A DNA stretch of 64,000 nucleotides from Longimicrobium sp. (GCA_035689035.1 DASSME010000407.1:28054-92053); one strand, 5' to 3'; positions 28,024-49,822 are shown, counted from the first letter of the stretch. Notes: generated by a model from the letters alone, not told the origin. Numbers and translations are program-made.

Positions 28024-29112
28024 CTACGAAGACATTCGCGCGAGCGCATGCTTTGCCGCACGAATACGCGCGGTTTCGGCGCTCGCGAGAGCTTCTGTCA
28101 TCCTTGTACCGTTGTGTTCAACATATTCAAACCGTCGGACGACTTCGACAAGACGGTCCTCCTTATAGAGATACGCCGCGAGTCCAGCGGCGATATCCGC
28201 CGCGCGTACAGGTTCTGAAAGGACTGAGTCGAGTTCGATCAGGCAGCTAGGCTGCTCGGACTGGGTCAGCGCGAACGGATCATAATCCATCAAATCGCTG
28301 AACTCCCGGCGCAAACTCTCGAGTATACCAAGAACTTTTGTATTCCCACGGTCGAAGGCATGCTTTTTTCGAAGTTCGGCTCCAATTCGCTGCTTTTCGA
28401 GGTTGCTGTATGCCTGAAGACTCCATCCGTCATGTGGGCTTGCGACTTCTTCCAACGCGTTCGCGAAAACGGATGCAGATCTCGCAGCAAACAGCAATGT
28501 GTGGTTTAGCTTGTTGTCAAGCTGGTATCGAAGTTTGTGATGCATCTCGCTCAACTGTTCTGCCCCGATTACATCGACCCATCCGTTCATCAGCACGACA
28601 TCGATATATCGCGCAAGTTGCTCGGCGCGAGAATTCCACAATACGTCTGCAGCTACGAACTCCGCTTCCAGTTCGCGCAACTTCTGACCTGCAGGCGTCG
28701 GTTCGTTTAGACTTCGTAACATCCAATCGTCACCGGAATCAAGTAGCTCGTGCCTTAACCCCATAACGTACGGACGTGGGTCTACTATATGGATCCGCGC
28801 TAGGCGCGCACCATTCCATACTGACTCTCGAAGGTCGTAGGAGAGATCGGGTAGTCGTTCTAAAACAGTTTGTGACTTCAGTTCGCCGTCAACGGAAATT
28901 TGCTTAACAAGGTCATAATACCAGTCAAGCGGATGGTGTGGAAACCATTGTGCTGCGACAATGACTCTGCCGAATCCCGAAGCGTGATCGCGCGGGGTCG
29001 TTTCATCCGTAAATGAAACAACCCCGTCGCCTTCCGGTGTAAGCTCCACCGCGTTTTGAAAAGCGGACACAGGCAGATCTCCACTGCTGTGGCTCTCGCC
29101 GGTAACCGGCAT
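28024..29112 (-). CDS. Lower-GC hypothetical protein, DUF3800-like (RNase H-fold) putative nuclease
   Basis: N-terminal 'SFTDET' and C-terminal 'DS...PVRAADIAAG' resemble the DUF3800 DE...S..QxAD pattern; starts 17 bp after rtcB; atypical codon usage. Confidence 0.5.
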   Translation of the reverse strand: MPVTGESHSSGDLPVSAFQNAVELTPEGDGVVSFTDETTPRDHASGFGRVIVAAQWFPHHPLDWYYDLVKQISVDGELKSQTVLERLPDLSYDLRESVWNGARLARIHIVDPRPYVMGLRHELLDSGDDWMLRSLNEPTPAGQKLRELEAEFVAADVLWNSRAEQLARYIDVVLMNGWVDVIGAEQLSEMHHKLRYQLDNKLNHTLLFAARSASVFANALEEVASPHDGWSLQAYSNLEKQRIGAELRKKHAFDRGNTKVLGILESLRREFSDLMDYDPFALTQSEQPSCLIELDSVLSEPVRAADIAAGLAAYLYKEDRLVEVVRRFEYVEHNGTRMTEALASAETARIRAAKHALARMSS

Positions 29113-29129: not shown

Positions 29130-30404
29130 TCAATCCTTGTACGGATCGATCTCGCCGGCGCCGGCCATGACGACGACCAGCGGATGCAGGACGTGCTGCA
29201 CCTCGATGGTGGGGCCCTGCGCCTCGAGCACCTTCGGGAGGCGGCGGTAGACCTGCGGCGCCTCGTCCAGGCCGCCGCCGCGAAGGACAACGCCACGCTT
29301 CGCCAGCCAGTCTTCCACCATCGTCGGCTGGATCTTGCCGTGGCTCTTCACCATCCCCTTGCGGGTGCGCTTGCCGGCGGCCTCGGTGCGGCTCATCACG
29401 CGGCCGGCGCCGTGCACGGTGCTGAACAGCGCGTCGCGCTGCACGGCCGCGATCTCGCTGTCCTCCGGCGCCACCGCGCCGGCCACGATCACCGCGTCGT
29501 CGCCCATTGATCCGCCGATGAAGCCGCGCTGGCCGGGGAACGCCGGCGTGGCGCCCTTGCGGACCACGATGTACTCCACCGGCTCTCCCTCGGGCGAAAG
29601 ATGGGTCTCGCGCCAGGCGAAGTTGTGGTGGTTGTGCACCATCTCCAGCTCGGTGCCGCCCAGCAGCTCCACCACCTTGCGCGCCACCCACTCGCGCCCG
29701 GCGTAGGCGTAGCGGCCAGCCAGCTCCATCAGGTGCCAGTAGTCGTGCCCCACGGGCTGGGTCACGTCCAGCAGCACCTCCTTCTCCCGCGCGCGCTGCC
29801 CCCAGTCGCCGCCCTGGGACAGCGACAGGAAGTCCGACGCGACGGTGTGCCCGAAGCCGCGGCTGCCGAAGTGCACGCCCACCCACACCGTGCCCGCGTC
29901 GTCGGCGAACACGTCCACGTAGTGGTTGCCCGAGCCGACGGTGCCCAGCTGGCGCCGCGCCTTCTCGCGAAGCGTATCGCGGTAGCCGCCCGTGTTGGGG
30001 ATGGCGTACCACGCCGGGTCGTTGAAGAGCGGGTCGTCCACCGGCGCGTCGTCGGCCTCGTTCTTCCGCCCGATCCCGAACGACACCGTCCCCGCGATCT
30101 CGTCCGCCGCACGGTTGACGCGCCGGTCCGTCGCCAGCCGGTGCGGGTTCCGCCGCACCTCGTCGATGGTGAGCCCCTTGGTGATGTCTCCGATCGTGAG
30201 GTCGGTTCGGATCGCGCAGTTCCCGCACGCGATGTCGAAACCCACGCCAACTACCGAAATCTTATCACGATACGCCGCCACGCCACCGATGGGCATCACG
30301 TAGCCGACGTGCCCGTCCGCCATGATGGCGGCCCGTTCAGCGCGGCTCGCGACGTCACGCAGCTGCAGGATCGTCTTCTCGTCGTGCTGCCCGAAGATCT
30401 TCAT
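29130..30404 (-). CDS. rtcB: RNA 2',3'-cyclic phosphate/5'-OH ligase RtcB
   Basis: 'DGHVGYVMPIG', 'VGFDIACG', 'GTVGSGNHY', 'HFGSRG', 'HNHHN', 'RKGATP', 'HGAGR', 'DEAP..Y'. Confidence 0.95.
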   Translation of the reverse strand: MKIFGQHDEKTILQLRDVASRAERAAIMADGHVGYVMPIGGVAAYRDKISVVGVGFDIACGNCAIRTDLTIGDITKGLTIDEVRRNPHRLATDRRVNRAADEIAGTVSFGIGRKNEADDAPVDDPLFNDPAWYAIPNTGGYRDTLREKARRQLGTVGSGNHYVDVFADDAGTVWVGVHFGSRGFGHTVASDFLSLSQGGDWGQRAREKEVLLDVTQPVGHDYWHLMELAGRYAYAGREWVARKVVELLGGTELEMVHNHHNFAWRETHLSPEGEPVEYIVVRKGATPAFPGQRGFIGGSMGDDAVIVAGAVAPEDSEIAAVQRDALFSTVHGAGRVMSRTEAAGKRTRKGMVKSHGKIQPTMVEDWLAKRGVVLRGGGLDEAPQVYRRLPKVLEAQGPTIEVQHVLHPLVVVMAGAGEIDPYKD

Positions 30405-30522: not shown

Positions 30523-30843
30523 TTAGTCCTCGTCGTCCCAGCGCTTGTCGGAGCGCTCTTCCTTGCGCTGAAGGTACTGGAACTCGCGGTCGCGCGCCCG
30601 CTGGCGCTCGGTGGATTCGCGGATGCCCTCGATCACGCTGGTGCGCAGCCACACCCGCGCGCCGTTGATGTCCACGAACTTGATCCACCGCGGCAGCCAG
30701 CGCCGCTCCAGCGCACGCGACAGCCGCGCCGCCGTGGCCACGTCCACGTAGTACCACTCGCGGCGGGTGTCCACCACGAAGTAGTCGCCCGCGTTCGGCT
30801 GCTCGCGCCCGGCCTGCTCCTGCTTCTGCCTGGTCGTGGTCAT
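30523..30843 (-). CDS. Small hypothetical protein between rsr and rtcB
   Basis: 106-aa ORF with coding-like codon bias; beta-rich core and charged tail. Confidence 0.7.
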   Translation of the reverse strand: MTTTRQKQEQAGREQPNAGDYFVVDTRREWYYVDVATAARLSRALERRWLPRWIKFVDINGARVWLRTSVIEGIRESTERQRARDREFQYLQRKEERSDKRWDDED

Positions 30844-30982
30844 GCTCGGTTCAGGGTTCTGCCGCCCGAAGCGCGGGTCCACCCAAGACCCGCGTCCGCG
30901 CGACATCAGTCGTATGATCTCCGGCCATCCGTCTCCCCGCGGGCGGGGCACGGGCCGGAGCCCGGGCCCCGGACCGCGCCGC

Positions 30983-32626
30983 CTACCGCGCGAAGTCGGT
31001 GATCAGCGCCGGCGTGGCGGCGTCGAAGCCCACCACGTCCAGCATCCCCGCGTCGTCCGGATCGGCGATGGTGAACCCGTTCGACGCCATCGCGACGACC
31101 ACCAGCTTCGCCGCGATCCCCGTGGCCTCGCGGTACTGCCGCAGGGCCTGGGTGGGGTGGATGGTGCCGGCCCACGTCTCGCTGTCGGTGTAGACCACGA
31201 AGACGTCGACCGCCCACCCGTGCTTGCGCGCCTCCACCATCGGCAGCGCGCAGTCGGTGCCGCCGAAGGGGAGCGCGCCCGTCTTCGCCACCACGTCATC
31301 CAGCCGCTGCCGCGGCGAGATGTCCAGCGTCGACAGCCCGCTGGGAAAGCCCGCGTGCATGCTGGGGTAAGTCCCCTGCGTGAACGCGGTGAAGAAGTGC
31401 CGCGGCTCGACCGCCGCCGTCACCAGCGCCATGGCGGCGCTCGCCTCGCGGCAGCTGACGCCCGTCAGGCCGTGCACGGGGGTGCACATGCTCCCCGACA
31501 CGTCCAGCGCCAGCATCACCCGGCGGCCGCTGGGCTCCACCGCCCCGAAGGCCAGGTAGAACGCCGCGTCCAGCGCGTCGCTCACCCGCGCCACCGGTTC
31601 CCACCGGCCCGTCCCGCGCACCCCGCGCCCGCTGGCGTAGGTGCGCAGCGCCGACAGGATCTGCACCGGGTGCACCCGCGCCCGGCGCAGCGCGGCCTGG
31701 TCCGTGATCCGCGCCGCCACCGTCTCCACGGCGGCGTTGCCGGGCGCCAGCACGCCCACCCGGGTGAGCGTGGCCAGGTTGCGGACCAGCGCGGTGAGCG
31801 GCATCGCCTCGAGCAGCGCCTCCCAGACCACGGGGTGGGCCAGCAGCGGCGTGGGCACCATCTCGCGGGTGAGCCGGTGCTCGCGCACCCACTCGGCCGC
31901 CCGCCGCGGCTCCATCCCGCCGTCCGCGTGCAGCTCGGCCACGGCACGCACCAGCCGCACCGCCTCCGTCTCGGGGGCGTCGGCGGGGAGCGCGCCGGTG
32001 ACGGCGCGGGCCAGCAGCGCCTGCTGCTCGCCGTCCGCCGGCCGGGGGTGCGCCAGCCGCAGCGCGTCGCGGTGGCTCCAGCCGTCGCGCTGCGGGTACT
32101 TCAGGAGCTGGTAGGCCAGCTCGCGCGCGGGCCGGGCCGTGTACCAGCGCGCCACCGCCCGCCGCACCCCGCGGCCCCAGCCGCGGAACGCCCGCACGTA
32201 CTGCAGCCAGTGCAGCAGGTGGGTGCCCGTGCGCGCCACCCGCGGCAGCGCGTCGAGCGCCGCGGCCCGCGTGGCCTCGTCGCCCAGCCCCGCCGCCATG
32301 GCCAGGGCGAAGAGCGCGGGGTCGTTGCGGGGCGCGCGGCCCGCCTCGCTGATCTCCACGATCCGGCGCACCACGCGGGCGCCGTCCTGCGCGATGCACT
32401 CGGCCACGGCGGTGGCGCTCTCCACCGTCAGCTGGCGCTCGGCCACGTAGTAGGTGCCGCCCTCGGTGCCCAGGACCAGGAAGCGGTCCAGCCGCGCCCA
32501 GCGGTCCACCGCCCACGCGAACCCGCCGCCGCTGTTGGGCACCTGCGCGGTGCCGGGGATCGGCGCGCTCTGCGGCGTGGCCAGCGTCCGCAGGCGAGTG
32601 GCGAAGTGCTTCGTGAAATCCATCAT
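30983..32626 (-). CDS. rsr: Ro60-related TROVE/vWA RNA-binding protein
   Basis: 'NSGGGF', 'RLDRFLVLGTEGGTYY', 'KYPQRDGWSHRDALRLAHP', 'ALVRNLATLT', vWA 'LDVSGSM', 'GGTDC', 'TDSET', 'MLDVVGFD'. Confidence 0.96.
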   Translation of the reverse strand: MMDFTKHFATRLRTLATPQSAPIPGTAQVPNSGGGFAWAVDRWARLDRFLVLGTEGGTYYVAERQLTVESATAVAECIAQDGARVVRRIVEISEAGRAPRNDPALFALAMAAGLGDEATRAAALDALPRVARTGTHLLHWLQYVRAFRGWGRGVRRAVARWYTARPARELAYQLLKYPQRDGWSHRDALRLAHPRPADGEQQALLARAVTGALPADAPETEAVRLVRAVAELHADGGMEPRRAAEWVREHRLTREMVPTPLLAHPVVWEALLEAMPLTALVRNLATLTRVGVLAPGNAAVETVAARITDQAALRRARVHPVQILSALRTYASGRGVRGTGRWEPVARVSDALDAAFYLAFGAVEPSGRRVMLALDVSGSMCTPVHGLTGVSCREASAAMALVTAAVEPRHFFTAFTQGTYPSMHAGFPSGLSTLDISPRQRLDDVVAKTGALPFGGTDCALPMVEARKHGWAVDVFVVYTDSETWAGTIHPTQALRQYREATGIAAKLVVVAMASNGFTIADPDDAGMLDVVGFDAATPALITDFAR

Positions 32627-32672
32627 CTCTCTTTCACTCGCCTCCTTCCGGGCTGAGCGTGGGGGGTGGAAA

Positions 32673-32763
32673 GGCGCCGCGCGCGGACGAGGGAGCCCGG
32701 GTGGAGATGCCGGTGCAACACCGGTTTGCGATCACCCGCCTGGTACGGCCCGCGCGCGGCGCC
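32673..32763 (-). ncRNA. Y RNA-like element Y1
   Basis: 14-bp terminal stem ggcgccgcgcgcgg/ccgcgcgcggcgcc; bulged-C helix GGGCCG / CUCGUCC; GGGUGAUCG box; next to rsr. Confidence 0.75.
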
Positions 32764-32772
32764 GGAGTGGAG

Positions 32773-32877
32773 AGGGCGGCGGATGAGGTGGCGCCGCTCG
32801 GCGCACGGCCTCCAGTTGCCCGGAGAACCATCCGTTAAAGGGATGCGATAACCGAATCGGCTACGACCCACCGCCCT
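32773..32877 (-). ncRNA. Y RNA-like element Y2
   Basis: Terminal stem agggcggtGGGUCG / CUCAUCCgccgccct; CGGUUAUCG box. Confidence 0.7.
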
Positions 32878-32914
32878 TCCTGTCTGTCCCGCGGTACTGC
32901 CTGGCTTCGAACGC

Positions 32915-33036
32915 GGAACGAGGGCCGGGGGGAGGTCAGGATTCGAACCTGAATTGACCACGGTAATCCTCATCCAACGGCCCGCCTTGCGGCGGACGAG
33001 GAGCGGCGAGGAACCCTCCACCGCCGGCCCCGCTCC
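32915..33036 (-). ncRNA. Permuted Y/tRNA-like element with T-arm
   Basis: Outer stem ggagcggggccgg/ccggccctcgttcc; inner CUCGUCCgcc-GCAA-ggcGGGCCG hairpin; GGAUUACCG box; T-arm UCAGG-UUCGAAU-CCUGA. Confidence 0.65.
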
Positions 33037-33050
33037 CTGCGCGTTCTTCA

Positions 33051-33164
33051 GCCGCACCGCCGCGCGCGGACGATCAGGTCCGCGGGCGGCACCCGGTCGC
33101 ATGGACCGGGTTCGAACTGGGCGCGATAACCGCTCGCGAGCGGCCCACGCGCGAACGGTGCGGC
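33051..33164 (-). ncRNA. Y RNA-like element Y3
   Basis: Terminal stem gccgcaccg..cgcgcgtGGGCCG / AUCGUCCgcgcgcg..cggtgcggc; CGGUUAUCG box; internal GUUCGAA. Confidence 0.7.
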
Positions 33165-33183
33165 GTCTGTCTTCCAGCTCCAG

Positions 33184-33314
33184 TGGAACCGGCGGGATTC
33201 GAACCCGCGACCTCTCGATCCCAAGTCGGTAACCCTCGGCCTTCGGCCCGGCGCGAGCACCGGGCAAGGGGGTGGCAGAAGGCGTAGCGCTCTACCGGGC
33301 TGAGCTACGGTCCC
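33184..33314 (-). ncRNA. tRNA(Pro-UGG)-like gene with a 57-nt Y-RNA hairpin inserted in the anticodon stem
   Basis: Acceptor GGGACCG/CGGUUCC+A, D-arm GCUC-AGCCCGGUA-GAGC, T-arm GCGGG-UUCGAAU-CCCGC. Removing 33229-33285 gives CUCGA-CUUGGGA-UCGAG and a 74-nt cloverleaf. Confidence 0.75.
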
Positions 33315-33343
33315 ACGGTGCTGCGTTGGCGCGATGCGAAGCG

Positions 33344-33478
33344 GGAGGCCCGGCGGGAATCGAACCCGCGACATCCGGAGTCACGATGATCCTCCGCCTT
33401 CGGCCCGCGGCGGGCAGCCACGGGCAAGGGGCCGGGGAGGATACCTCCGGTGCTCTACCGCTGAGCTACGGGCGCTCC
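33344..33478 (-). ncRNA. tRNA(His-GUG)-like gene with a 59-nt Y-RNA hairpin inserted in the anticodon arm
   Basis: D-arm GCUC-AGCGGUA-GAGC, stem CCGGA/UCCGG, T-arm GCGGG-UUCGAUU-CCCGC; insert 33387-33445 carries CCCCUUGCCC...GGGCCGAAGG. Confidence 0.75.
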
Positions 33479-33497
33479 ACGTTCCGCGTCAGGCAGG

Positions 33498-33570
33498 GGC
33501 GGCTGGTGGGGCTCGAACCCACTCCCCCGGATCCACGGCCCAGTGCTCTTCCCGTTGAGCTACGGCCGCC
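33498..33570 (-). tRNA. tRNA-His(GUG)-like gene, atypical
   Basis: G-1:C73 pair, acceptor GCGGCCG/CAGCCGC (1 mismatch), D-arm GCUC/GAGC, loop CCGUGGA (C33 instead of U33), T-arm GUGGG-UUCGAGC-CCCAC; no encoded CCA. Confidence 0.65.
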
Positions 33571-33600
33571 ACACGCCTGTGTCTTTCGTACGATCTTCGC

Positions 33601-33692
33601 GGCCGGCGGACCGGCGGAGCGTGTCCGCCTTCGGCCCTGGGAGTCGCGTTCGCCGGTGCCTGGGGCGTTCCCGCCCGCCGGCGCCGCCGGCC
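33601..33692 (-). ncRNA. Degenerate permuted Y-like hairpin
   Basis: Outer stem ggccggcgg..ccggcgg/ccgccgg.ccgccggcc containing GGGCCGAAGGCGG; second box absent. Confidence 0.35.
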
Positions 33693-33746
33693 GTCGTCTG
33701 GTCTGACCACCTCCGGGTGATCGGGTTCGTCACCGGGCGGAAACGA

Positions 33747-33787
33747 ACATCGCCCCGCCCGCGGCTTCTGCGCGGGCGGGGCGATGT
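33747..33787 (-). terminator. Long perfect hairpin (terminator or processing signal)
   Basis: acatcgccccgcccgcg / cgcgggcggggcgatgt, followed on the minus strand by tcgtttcc. Confidence 0.5.
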
Positions 33788-34216
33788 GGTCGCCTCCGAC
33801 GGACGTGGGTGCCTGGCGGAACGTTATGCCGCCAACCCGGTCCTCCCGCGCTGTTCCTTCTCGATCCCGTCATGCGGACCGCCCGCTTTGGCGCCGCGCT
33901 CGCCCACCGGGTTCATCAGCCCGAAGGGGGAGTACGGACGCACTTCGCCCAGCGGGGTGGCCGCGCACCTCTCCACCGCGGCGCCGGGCAACACGCCGGC
34001 GCCGGTGGATCTGTGCTGGAGTTGGGCGAAGCTGGGTCGCTGCATCTCGCTATACCGTCTTGCCGGCATCCCCGGCGGTGGTGGTCTGGACTCCCTGAAA
34101 CGCAAAATCGCGCCGCCGACGTCTCGCCGTGGTGCTCACGGCGCGGCATCCAATCCCCATGCAGGCGGGGTGTGGAAGACCGAACGACATCGGGACGCGA
34201 CTCCCAAGAGGCGACG

Positions 34217-34246
34217 AGTCTACAAGCGCTCCCCGCGGTCTGTCAA
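34217..34246 (-). promoter_or_regulatory. Sigma70-like promoter for the RNA array / rsr-rtcB locus
   Basis: Minus strand TTGACA-N18-TAGACT. Confidence 0.6.
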
Positions 34247-34413
34247 CCCTCTCCTTCGCTTCCTCGCGCCAGGCGATCCTTCGCCCCACCCGCGGCGGAC
34301 GGCGTAAGCCCTGGTGGATGAACGGCTTGCGCGGGGGATGGAAAAGGGCGGCGGGCGAGACAAAGTGCTGTCTCGCCCGCCGCCGCGTGCCGGAGGATGC
34401 GGTCCGCCGCGCG

Positions 34414-38022: not shown

Positions 38023-39885
38023 ATGGCTGACTACCGCAACGACGACGACCGGACGCTTCCCGGGGTGGGGATGAACCGCACCCCCGAAACCGATCCGGAG
38101 CACCTGCTCCCCGACCACACCAGCGCCGGCGCGGTGGGCTCCATCCCCGCCGCCGCGCTGAGCGGCGACCCCGACGCGGTGCGCGACGAGATCGAGCGCA
38201 CGCGTGCCCGGATGAGCCGCACCATCGACCAGCTGGACCGCGCCCTGGTGCGCAAGAAGACTGAGGTGCAGGAAAAGCTCGACGTGGCCGCGCCGATCCG
38301 GCAGCGCCCCTGGGTCTACGCCGGCGGCGTGTTCGCGGCCGGCCTGGCGCTGGGGCTGATCACCGGCGGCGGCAAGCGCGACGACGACGAGGACGACGAC
38401 CACGTGAAGATCCCCAAGGCCCTGCTGGCGGGGATCGGGCTGCAGCAGGCGAGGGGCGGCCGCGGGTCCGGCGACGACGTGGAGGTGGAGTACACCGGCG
38501 AGGGCTCGGACGACTGGGAGACGCGCGCCCGCGAGCTGATGTCGGTGGTGGCCCGGCAGGAGGAGGAGATCCGCTCGCTGCGCGGCGGCGGGCCGGACGA
38601 GACCTGGTACGACGACCCGGACTACCTGTCGCCCACCGACGCCCGCCTGCTCGACGACGTGGAGGCGCTCTCGGAGCACGACGTGCAGGACGAGTGGGAC
38701 GAGGACTGGAACTTCGTGGAGGGCGGGTACAACGACGAGCTCGGCGACACCTACACCGGCCAGCTCGACGGCGACCTGTACATGGGCTCGGAGTACGACG
38801 CGGCCGACTACGAGGTGGAGCTGGACCAGTACGCGCGGAGCGGGATCGACTTCAAGAAGCCGCTGGCCATGCTCCTGGCCGCCGGCGTGGCGGGCGCGCT
38901 GGGCACGCTCGGCAAGCGCGTCCTGGGCGGCCGCGACGACGAGGAGCTGGACGTGGAGGTGGAGCTGGAGCCCCGCGGCGGGCTGGCCGAGGACGTGTAC
39001 GTGGACGAGGCCGGCCGTAGCGCCCGCCGCGCCGCCCGCCACCAGGCGGGGCCCGCGCCGCGCGCCCGCGAGTACGGCCCGGAGTACGGAGCGGCCGGCG
39101 GCGAGCGCTACGCGGCCGCCCCGGCGCCGCGCCGCGCGGGCGCCTACGAGACGCGTGGCGCGTACGACGCCGGGTACGGGTACACCGGTGAGCACGGCGG
39201 CGAGATGGAGGTGGAGGTCGACCTGGAGCAGCCGGTCCGCCGCACCGGGTACACGGGTGAGATGGAGGTGGAGGTCGAGCTGGAGCGCCCGGTGCGCCGG
39301 TCGCTTCCGCCGCGGCGCCGCCGCCCGCGGGTGAGCCCGCTGGCCGGCGCGGTGGCGGCGGGCGCGGCGGCCGCGGTGAGCGGACTGGTGGCCAAGCTGA
39401 TCCATAGCCGCGCCGAGCGTGCCTCCGAGATGGAGGTGGAGGTGGAGCTGGAGCAGCCGCGGCGCCAGCCGGCACCGGTGCGCCGCTCGCCGGCCCCGCA
39501 GCGCCCGGCCGCGGCCTACACGCCGCAGCCGGCGGCCCGTCCGCAGGCGTCCGCGGGCGGTGAGCTGGAGGTGGAGGTAGAGCTCGAGACGCCGCGCGCC
39601 ACGCCCGCCACCGGCAGCTGGACGCCGTCCGCGCACCCGGAGCAGGCGATCAGCGGCTCCGCGTTCGGCTCCACGGCCTCGGCCGGGGCGTCGGACCGTC
39701 CCACCGACGTGGAGGTGGACGCCGAGACTCGCGGCGCCACCCGGGCGGCCGGGGGCACGGTGGGCTACGGCACCGGCGGACAGCCGAACCACACCGGCAC
39801 CCCCGGGAGCGCCTCCGGCAGCGGGAACGCCGGCGGCGGCACCGGCACCGGCGGCAGCACCCCGTCCAACCCGCCGCTGATGTAA
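38023..39885 (+). CDS. DUF3618-like protein with acidic low-complexity repeats
   Basis: 'DAVRDEIERTRARMSRTIDQL'; repeated E(M/L)EVEVELE motif; AGGAGG RBS. Confidence 0.75.
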   Translation: MADYRNDDDRTLPGVGMNRTPETDPEHLLPDHTSAGAVGSIPAAALSGDPDAVRDEIERTRARMSRTIDQLDRALVRKKTEVQEKLDVAAPIRQRPWVYAGGVFAAGLALGLITGGGKRDDDEDDDHVKIPKALLAGIGLQQARGGRGSGDDVEVEYTGEGSDDWETRARELMSVVARQEEEIRSLRGGGPDETWYDDPDYLSPTDARLLDDVEALSEHDVQDEWDEDWNFVEGGYNDELGDTYTGQLDGDLYMGSEYDAADYEVELDQYARSGIDFKKPLAMLLAAGVAGALGTLGKRVLGGRDDEELDVEVELEPRGGLAEDVYVDEAGRSARRAARHQAGPAPRAREYGPEYGAAGGERYAAAPAPRRAGAYETRGAYDAGYGYTGEHGGEMEVEVDLEQPVRRTGYTGEMEVEVELERPVRRSLPPRRRRPRVSPLAGAVAAGAAAAVSGLVAKLIHSRAERASEMEVEVELEQPRRQPAPVRRSPAPQRPAAAYTPQPAARPQASAGGELEVEVELETPRATPATGSWTPSAHPEQAISGSAFGSTASAGASDRPTDVEVDAETRGATRAAGGTVGYGTGGQPNHTGTPGSASGSGNAGGGTGTGGSTPSNPPLM

Positions 39886-49248: not shown

Positions 49249-49499
49249 GGGGTGGATGGTTCGCGGTGCGGGCGCCGGAGGGCGCGGCGGAGCGGGGCGC
49301 GTGGAGGAGAAACCGTATGCGAGCATCGGCGGGGCGGCTCGGGTTTCCGGTGGGCAGCGCGGGTGGGCGCGCCAGTGACAGGCGATCATGGAAACGCATC
49401 AACCACGAATCTTGTGACAGTTCGTGAGCAGGGCGCGACAAAGCGTCGTGTGGCGGGGTTGTCCGCGGCGCGCGGCGGCCGTAGCTTTGCTCGCTGACA

Positions 49500-49685
49500 A
49501 CATCGAAGCGAGGGGGCCTTTCGGAAGCCGGTGCAACTCCGGCGCGGCCCCGCCACTGTAAGAGGCCCGGCGCGCGTGCGCTGCCGGTCCGGCCCGCTCC
49601 GCGGGGGTTCAGCCCCCGCACAGCCACTGGGCAGCACGCCCGGGAAGGTGGAGCGCCAGCCGCCTCGAGCCAGGAGACCGGCCCC
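49500..49685 (+). promoter_or_regulatory. Cobalamin riboswitch
   Basis: ggaagccggtgcaactccggc...gccactgtaa, gccactggg...gggaagg and B12 box agccaggagaccggcc, upstream of btu genes. Confidence 0.93.
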
Positions 49686-49822
49686 CGCGCTCCCGCATGA
49701 ACGCCCCTCGCGGGAGGGGTGCGGGGTCCGACCATCGGCCGAGCTCGCTCCGGGCCCCTCGCGGGCCGCCTCGCCGACCGTCGCACCCGTTCTCTCCCCG
49801 GCAGTGGGAAGGAACGGGTTCT

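Follow-up and report, generated by a model that had tools for sequence, protein, structure and literature searches.

Y RNAs are regarded as modular tethers of Ro60, and a mere handful of bacterial examples has been characterised. Close to the 5' end of bacterial Y RNAs, Chen et al. (2014) described a sequence, GNCGAAN0-1G, that they treat as the counterpart of the GGUCCGA contacted by Ro60, and further along the molecule a conserved YUAY (PMC4201824). D. radiodurans, like animals, keeps both strands of the Ro-binding helix, whereas YrlA keeps the 5' strand only (PMC4201824). Salmonella YrlA is bent by ~30 degrees where its Ro60 module meets the tRNA-like domain, a kink caused by a conserved UA (Wang et al. 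2018, 10.1101/312249). The Y RNAs of M. smegmatis and D. radiodurans lie upstream of rsr and are cut from a polycistronic precursor, and the 7-bp acceptor stem of M. smegmatis YrlA is cut by RNase P (PMC4201824). On the eukaryotic side, Kowalski and Krude (2015) described UUAUC as a loop motif that is conserved in the sbRNAs of nematodes and the Y RNAs of vertebrates (PMC4726728); the published reads of human Y4 give GGUCCG, 9 nt, and GGUUAUC, and those of human Y1 give GGUCCG, 9 nt, and AGUUAUC.

In the window, a 64,000-nt stretch of Longimicrobium sp. DNA (GCA_035689035.1), a bipartite motif recurs in six segments ahead of an rsr gene (Table 1). We take the motif, with a probability of about 85%, to be the presumed Ro60 (Rsr)-binding module common to six separate tandem Y RNA modules upstream of rsr–rtcB. 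Along its entire length, the rsr product aligns with Rsr of D. radiodurans (2NVO, E 3.6e-124) and with Ro60 of X. laevis (1YVP, E 2.9e-116). The modules lie 50–850 nt upstream of the gene and on its strand, within about 4 kb of it, and module F ends ~50 nt before the start codon. A tRNA-His(GUG)-like gene with C33 in place of U33, one acceptor mismatch, and a GGGCCG inside its anticodon arm heads the array. It is an extra copy, since a second tRNA-His(GUG) is present on another contig (C102:938-1013).

Table 1. Features of the array and its neighbours; motif copies are read 5' to 3' on the minus strand and carry the letters of their modules
Feature	Position	Strand	Motif copy	Partner strand	Description
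Promoter-like site	34217..34246	minus			TTGACA, 18 nt, TAGACT; consensus scan, 1 found vs 0.0 expected
tRNA-His(GUG)-like gene	33496..33569	minus			Head of array; ARAGORN and Rfam tRNA, 50.3 bits
Module A	33345..33475	minus	33406-33384	UUGCCC 33422-33427	Putative tRNA-like Y RNA chimera
Module B	33184..33314	minus	33249-33227	UUGCCC 33262-33267	Putative tRNA-like Y RNA chimera
Module C	33060..33154	minus	33146-33124	CGUCC 33068-33072	Stem-type Y RNA, 5' and 3' ends pair
Module D	32921..33031	minus	32983-32961	UCGUCC 32994-32999	Hairpin-type Y RNA
Module E	32773..32877	minus	32869-32846	CAUCC 32781-32785	Stem-type Y RNA
Module F	32677..32759	minus	32751-32729	CGUCC 32685-32689	Stem-type Y RNA, last before rsr
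rsr	30983..32626	minus			Ro60 orthologue, 547-aa ORF; Pfam TROVE and vWA_Ro60
rtcB RNA ligase gene	29130..30404	minus			Downstream of rsr; Pfam RtcB, E 3.9e-59

The consensus scan that located the promoter-like site found no terminator-like site between it and rsr; the only such site, a strong one at 34347–34384, belongs to the preceding gene and lies upstream of the promoter-like site. Because a sole promoter-like site is followed by no terminator before rsr, the array, rsr, and rtcB are probably carried on a single transcript, as judged from these sequence signals. Two further minus-strand ORFs, one of 142 aa in the interval between rsr and rtcB (30523–30951) and one of 362 aa after rtcB (28024–29112), have no Pfam match. 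In the leader upstream of the tRNA-His-like gene, the sequence GGGCCGAAGGCGGA (33624–33637, minus strand) repeats box 1 and the spacer of module A; box 2 and any obvious partner strand are missing, and the sequence may be a decayed module.

All six minus-strand copies of the motif reported by the sequence-only reading were recovered at their sites, letter for letter. In its strict form, GGGYCG-N8/9-SGRUBAYCG, the motif has 17 matches on the two strands of the 6.53-Mb assembly, and six of the 17 fall within a 680-nt stretch directly upstream of rsr, where the background rate predicts ~0.0007. The other 11 matches are isolated singles, ten on contigs apart from that of the window and one elsewhere on the window's contig; they carry UGA or UCA where the array copies mostly have UUA, and a pairing scan found no supporting helices around them. 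The search for copies away from rsr, pursued by regular-expression and pairing scans and with the model R1 described below, returned none with supporting helices in an assembly that is 83% complete, the first-look filter having scored part of the candidates only. In the genus, 128 motif copies were collected upstream of rsr from 27 further Longimicrobium genomes or loci, which hold 1 to 7 each.

Comparison of the Longimicrobium copies reveals what the first half of the motif does. Box 1, GGGY(C)GA, and its complement, CRUCC or UUGCCC, make up a helix, P1, with a single bulged C: GGGY is paired with RYCC, the next C is partnerless, and the G that follows (usually GA) is paired again. At position 4, the 53 copies of stem-type layout have U:A in 32, C:G in 21, and U:G in none, and the C is bulged in every copy; G3 faces a U in 51 of the 53. 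An alignment of 51 stem-type modules shows P1 to be 96.9% paired, with compensatory changes on both sides in 9 of 14 pairs, and RNAalifold finds compensatory changes at 14 of 23 predicted pairs among 19 orthologues of module C. The change at position 4 is visible even inside the array, where E has GGGU(C)G opposite CAUCC vs GGGC(C)G opposite CGUCC in C and F. The modules therefore possess a bulged-nucleotide helix of which both strands are kept, as in the Y RNAs of D. radiodurans and animals.

P1 is built in two layouts. In the stem-type layout (53 copies), box 1 forms the 5' strand of a terminal stem, and its partner, a CRUCC pentamer, lies 55–93 nt downstream; a further 5–17 base pairs extend outward of the pentamer, with pairing statistics that are partly circular because the outer stem belonged to the detection rule. 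In the hairpin-type layout, the partner (UUGCCC, UCGUCC, and similar sequences) is found a few nucleotides upstream of box 1. The 68 copies given such a partner are an upper bound, since the partner was taken as the nearest pairable pentamer and some rows so assigned are really stem-type modules. In the tRNA-like copies of this layout, a small hairpin connects the two P1 strands, and its stem shows compensatory variation, as in GGC-UUCG-GCC, GCC-GCAA-GGC, GCGGG-AUCACA-CCCGC, and GCCGGC-UUCCAU-GCCGGC. These closures and the covariation at position 4 are free of the circularity of the detection rule.

The spacer that follows box 1 is mostly of one length: of the 121 assigned copies, 104 have the GG of box 2 at a distance of 9 nt from box 1. 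Together with this GG, the spacer pairs with the 22 nt immediately 5' of the box-1 partner strand. The mean duplex energy is −12.9 kcal/mol with a module's own partner vs −9.1 ± 0.3 when partners are swapped between modules, which argues that the spacer makes up one side of a second helix, P2. Counting by alignment column gives only 66% pairing for P2, a low value because the register of the MAFFT alignment slips, and the duplex-energy test was used instead. The sequence of P2 is free and its complementarity is kept. For the C-type modules, RNAalifold offers another arrangement, in which GGU pairs with ACC beside AGCG; the columns concerned are invariant, and the E-type modules favour the P2 reading.

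Box 2, GGUUAYCG, is conserved far beyond the needs of a helix end (G 100, G 90, U 100, U 94, A 100, Y 86, C 100, and G 90%). UUAYCG is the junction that follows P2, and the YCG after UUA opens the next domain, which in C and E is a hairpin, in B an anticodon-like stem, and in A an extended arm. By eye, box 2 can be fitted as the D arm of a tRNA in C and E; this was rejected as the present structure, since the spacer pairs specifically with the distal strand.

Modules C, E, and F are classical Y RNAs in which the 5' and 3' ends form the stem. They score 55.0, 57.3, and 49.5 bits, respectively, with R1, a model built from Longimicrobium stem-type modules only. Module C has 19 orthologues that could be aligned; folded as a single sequence, it prefers local hairpins to P1. 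The fold z-score of module E is −3.55. The minimum-energy fold of module F contains the terminal stem (through GGGC:GUCC) and the second helix; because this fold leaves G6 and its partner C unpaired, the single-C bulge in F rests on the comparative model.

Modules A and B combine the motif with elements of tRNA and are complete tRNA-like units. Module A has an acceptor stem, a D arm, and a T arm, with a predicted closed Ro-binding hairpin where the anticodon loop would be. The Rfam tRNA model (RF00005, threshold 29 bits) scores it at 40.6 bits with a 66-nt insert, and its minimum-energy fold is a cloverleaf with one long arm; its own acceptor strands pair, and the hairpins of its orthologues are closed by covarying stems. 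In module B, the putative Ro-binding hairpin is located between the D arm and an anticodon-like hairpin. Its acceptor strands, GGGACCG and CGGUUCC, form 7 of 7 pairs and its D and T arms are canonical, and by these features it too reads as a cloverleaf; the inner reading by RF00005 scores 24.7 bits. The 7-nt strand before each D arm in the genus (n = 71) makes 6.75 of 7 pairs with its own 3' strand ~100 nt downstream vs 5.36 of 7 with that of the preceding unit. Partial matches to the Rfam YrlA model had prompted a reading across units, in which the T arm of one module and the D arm of the next would make up a YrlA; it was rejected because the acceptor strands pair within the unit and the Ro helix closes locally by covarying hairpins.

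There is no conserved anticodon among the orthologues of A and B. A-type units lack a 7-nt anticodon loop. B-type units have, after box 2, an anticodon-like hairpin (UCGA, 7-nt loop, UCGA; orthologues L002–L030), in which U33 is present in 18 of 18 loops, position 37 is usually a purine, and 12 different triplets occur among the 18, differing by species (UGG, CCA, CCG, CUU, CUG, GUC, GAU, and others). With the anticodon missing in A and free to vary in B, these RNAs would mimic tRNA and not decode. tRNA genes with insertions and permuted tRNA genes are a known parallel, in that the acceptor, D, and T elements of A and B score as tRNA around a 55–66-nt insert. The insert differs from an intron in being a conserved, putative protein-docking hairpin. 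Module D has a T arm and no canonical D arm; as read from the sequence, its Ro helix is capped by GCC-GCAA-GGC. The fold z-score is −3.27, the closing stem is GGGGCCGG/CCGGCCCU, and similar modules are found in other species.

The two boxes are the GNCGAA and YUAY elements already published for bacterial Y RNAs, as judged by sequence correspondence, and the motif is not new. Modules A and B read GCCGAAGG, with GNCGAA in full; C to F have GYCG followed by C or U. Genus-wide, GYCG is followed by A in 62–80% of copies, and the position after that is A in 58–66%. The modules share with YrlA and YrlB of Salmonella and M. smegmatis their position beside rsr on the same strand, the GNCGAA-type 5' strand, a YUA(Y) that comes after the second helix, D and T arms like those of tRNA, and the presence of several Y RNAs per locus, which in the array, too, probably come from one precursor. 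The best matches to the Rfam YrlA model (RF02553) reach 35.1 and 23.9 bits against a gathering score of 69, each spanning two neighbouring modules, and no YrlA match at threshold was obtained in 20 related loci from five phyla. The permuted order of YrlA, with a Ro stem formed by the RNA ends, followed by a T arm, a closed acceptor hairpin, and a D arm, is not seen in the modules. YrlA is a circularly permuted tRNA with a closed acceptor and a Ro stem made from the RNA ends; A and B reverse this arrangement, the acceptor being open and the Ro helix closed by a loop. The Longimicrobium modules also differ from YrlA in retaining both strands of the Ro helix and the bulged C.

Yrn1 and Yrn2 of D. 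radiodurans resemble the modules in having both Ro-helix strands, a T arm, and, as is probable for the array, co-transcription with a tRNA gene upstream of rsr (PMC4201824). In Yrn1, the Ro stem replaces the acceptor stem, a difference from A and B that is drawn from the published description. The closed Ro hairpin within a complete tRNA-like body is a third topology beside those of YrlA and Yrn1. The characterised species are reported to have two Y RNAs each, whereas the Longimicrobium array has six modules. In the searchable literature, we found neither arrays of six or more modules nor tRNA chimeras with closed hairpins. What was already known is thus the motif and the tether principle; what is unusual is the topology and the size of the array.

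The association with rsr extends beyond this genome. In the window's own genome, R1 matches modules C, E, and F only. In 61 whole genomes it has 76 matches, all on the contig and strand of rsr, including four genomes that had contributed no training sequence; in 24 genomes of two sister families it has no match, and rsr was likewise not found there. For the hairpin-type modules, exclusivity to rsr rests on a regular-expression scan of this one genome. The motif also adjoins rsr in Armatimonadota, Chloroflexi, other Gemmatimonadota, and Myxococcota, and R1 itself matches modules in Armatimonadota (L093:1166-1274), Chloroflexi, and Gemmatimonadales. One Armatimonadales MAG has nine copies of a relaxed motif upstream of rsr (L093:1001-2296). 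In three Myxococcota MAGs (L061, L064, and L085), the motif-bearing modules lie downstream, not upstream, of rsr; in the same three, many matches to the Rfam tRNA model are found on both sides of the gene. Matches to the tRNA model that are 108–136 nt long adjoin rsr in Chloroflexi, Armatimonadota, other Gemmatimonadota, and Myxococcota. Their length and position suggest that they are Ro-hairpin tRNA chimeras, and two of them (L093) were inspected.

The modules have in common a scaffold of two helices, with a bulged C and a junction that is invariant, to which diverse domains are joined, and they are found only with rsr. The sequence-only reading had proposed a constant Ro-docking scaffold with variable cargo. 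That idea is backed by the covarying P1 with its bulged C, by P2, by the UUAYC junction, and by the differing domains downstream, with Rsr as the presumed ligand; the confinement of the stem-type copies to the vicinity of rsr, as seen with R1 in 61 genomes, speaks for it as well.

The position of the array raises the question of whether the modules are released at all. They could be cis-acting elements in the 5' leader of the rsr–rtcB mRNA, binding Rsr or sensing structure, for example in autoregulation: the stretch from the only promoter-like site to the start of rsr contains all six modules and no terminator, and the last of them ends ~50 nt ahead of the start codon. We regard this as improbable. 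The 7-bp acceptor stems and the D and T arms of A and B are determinants for RNase P, Y RNAs are known to be excised from a precursor in M. smegmatis and D. radiodurans (PMC4201824), and the occurrence of the motif downstream of rsr in Myxococcota indicates that a leader position is not required. The factor that reads the motif might also be RtcB or another product of the locus, for instance a nuclease or a processing enzyme, in which case the motif would mark sites of cleavage or ligation instead of docking Rsr. The downstream, co-oriented rtcB and the ORF without Pfam match that follows it lend this some plausibility, but box 1 and its bulged C replicate the contact mapped for Ro60, GGUCCGA (PMC4201824; PMC4726728), and co-occurrence of the motif, examined for rsr alone, was found for rsr; a reader other than Rsr seems very unlikely.

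The tRNA-like features of the array suggest yet another origin, in which the motif would be a relic of decayed or duplicated tRNA genes, composed of the acceptor 5' strand and the GGUUA of the D loop and devoid of any Ro60 function. Its two halves are in register with tRNA positions 2–7 and 18–21, module E starts with GGGUCGUAGCC...GGUUA, the Rfam tRNA model can take the boxes of B as acceptor and D arm (at 24.7 bits), and a tRNA-His-like gene heads the array. Against this, the covarying partner of box 1 is CRUCC, which leaves a bulge, and not the 3' strand of an acceptor, the spacer is bound to the distal strand and forms no D hairpin, box 2 is conserved beyond the needs of any tRNA D loop, and the motif is kept in at least four phyla, always adjoining rsr. 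A functionless relic is thus highly improbable. Descent from tRNA, in itself, is compatible with a present function in binding Ro60.

On the preferred reading, that of Y RNA modules released to bind Rsr, a scheme for their action can be drawn by analogy with the described systems. As in M. smegmatis, RNase P and 3' trimming would act on the 7-bp acceptor stems and so free the modules from one precursor. Rsr would dock on P1, whose bulged-C geometry corresponds to what Ro60 reads on vertebrate Y RNAs. The UUA may serve as a hinge and so determine at what angle the effector domain stands, after the manner of the kinking UA of Salmonella YrlA. The domains past box 2, which appear to be assorted hairpins in C, E, and F, tRNA-like bodies in A and B, and a T arm in D, could then tether one Rsr ring to different partners, for which PNPase offers a precedent.

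The likeness to human Y4 drawn in the sequence-only reading agrees with the published reads, with their 9-nt spacing and GGUUAUC. The resemblance is not confined to Y4: the 9-nt spacing is common to human Y1, human Y4, and the nematode sbRNA consensus of Rfam (RF01656), which reads UCGGUCCGG-aGucgaUG-GGUUAUC. Vertebrate Y RNAs and nematode sbRNAs share with the modules a lower stem with a single bulged C in GGUCCGA, a 9-nt upper strand, and a (G)GUUAUC that opens the loop. They differ in that the G3 of the Longimicrobium modules pairs with U, the outer stem is GC-rich, and the loops are unrelated; the modules also have neither an oligo-U tail nor a Pol III context. Eukaryotic UUAUC has been tied to DNA replication, a function without a bacterial counterpart. 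The region of the array (32500–33900) has no match to the metazoan Y_RNA (RF00019) or sbRNA (RF01656) models at E values up to 10. A stem-type module beside rsr in Armatimonadota (L093:1166-1274) scores 40.4 bits with RF01656, above the threshold of 38, and four further stem-type modules of this locus score 21.5–37 bits. For the modules of the window, the likeness to metazoan Y RNA is, by sequence comparison, at the level of the motif only, that is, of the bulged-C helix, the 9-nt spacing, and UUAUC.

It is conceivable, though we think it somewhat less probable than its contrary, that the whole bipartite unit of bulged-C Ro60 helix, 9-nt strand, and GGUUAUC is ancestral to bacterial and eukaryotic Y RNAs. 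If so, the two groups of Y RNAs would be homologous and not merely analogous, and the eukaryotic UUAUC would have begun as a hinge or contact within the Ro60 RNP. The array, with its tRNA bodies that carry a closed Ro hairpin beside plain stem-type Y RNAs, would then preserve intermediates between tRNA and Y RNA. The searchable literature yielded no statement that explicitly connects the junction of bacteria with the UUAUC of eukaryotes at identical spacing. Since humans, nematodes, and bacteria of at least four phyla all have the 9-nt spacing and UUAUC, both the homology of Y RNAs and the role of UUAUC become testable with a bacterial Rsr. The closed-hairpin tRNA chimeras have a topology that lies outside the dimeric-tRNA model of Y RNA origin. 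Finally, the joining of six or more natural variants of the effector domain to one constant docking module provides a comparative set for identifying the partners to which Rsr is tethered.

Two other RNA elements were noted in the window, apart from the array. ARAGORN calls a 94-nt tRNA-Gly(CCC) at 39768–39861 (minus strand), which has no Rfam tRNA match at threshold and may be a false call or an unusual tRNA. A cobalamin riboswitch (Rfam RF00174, 43.8 bits) is located at 49497–49700 on the plus strand.
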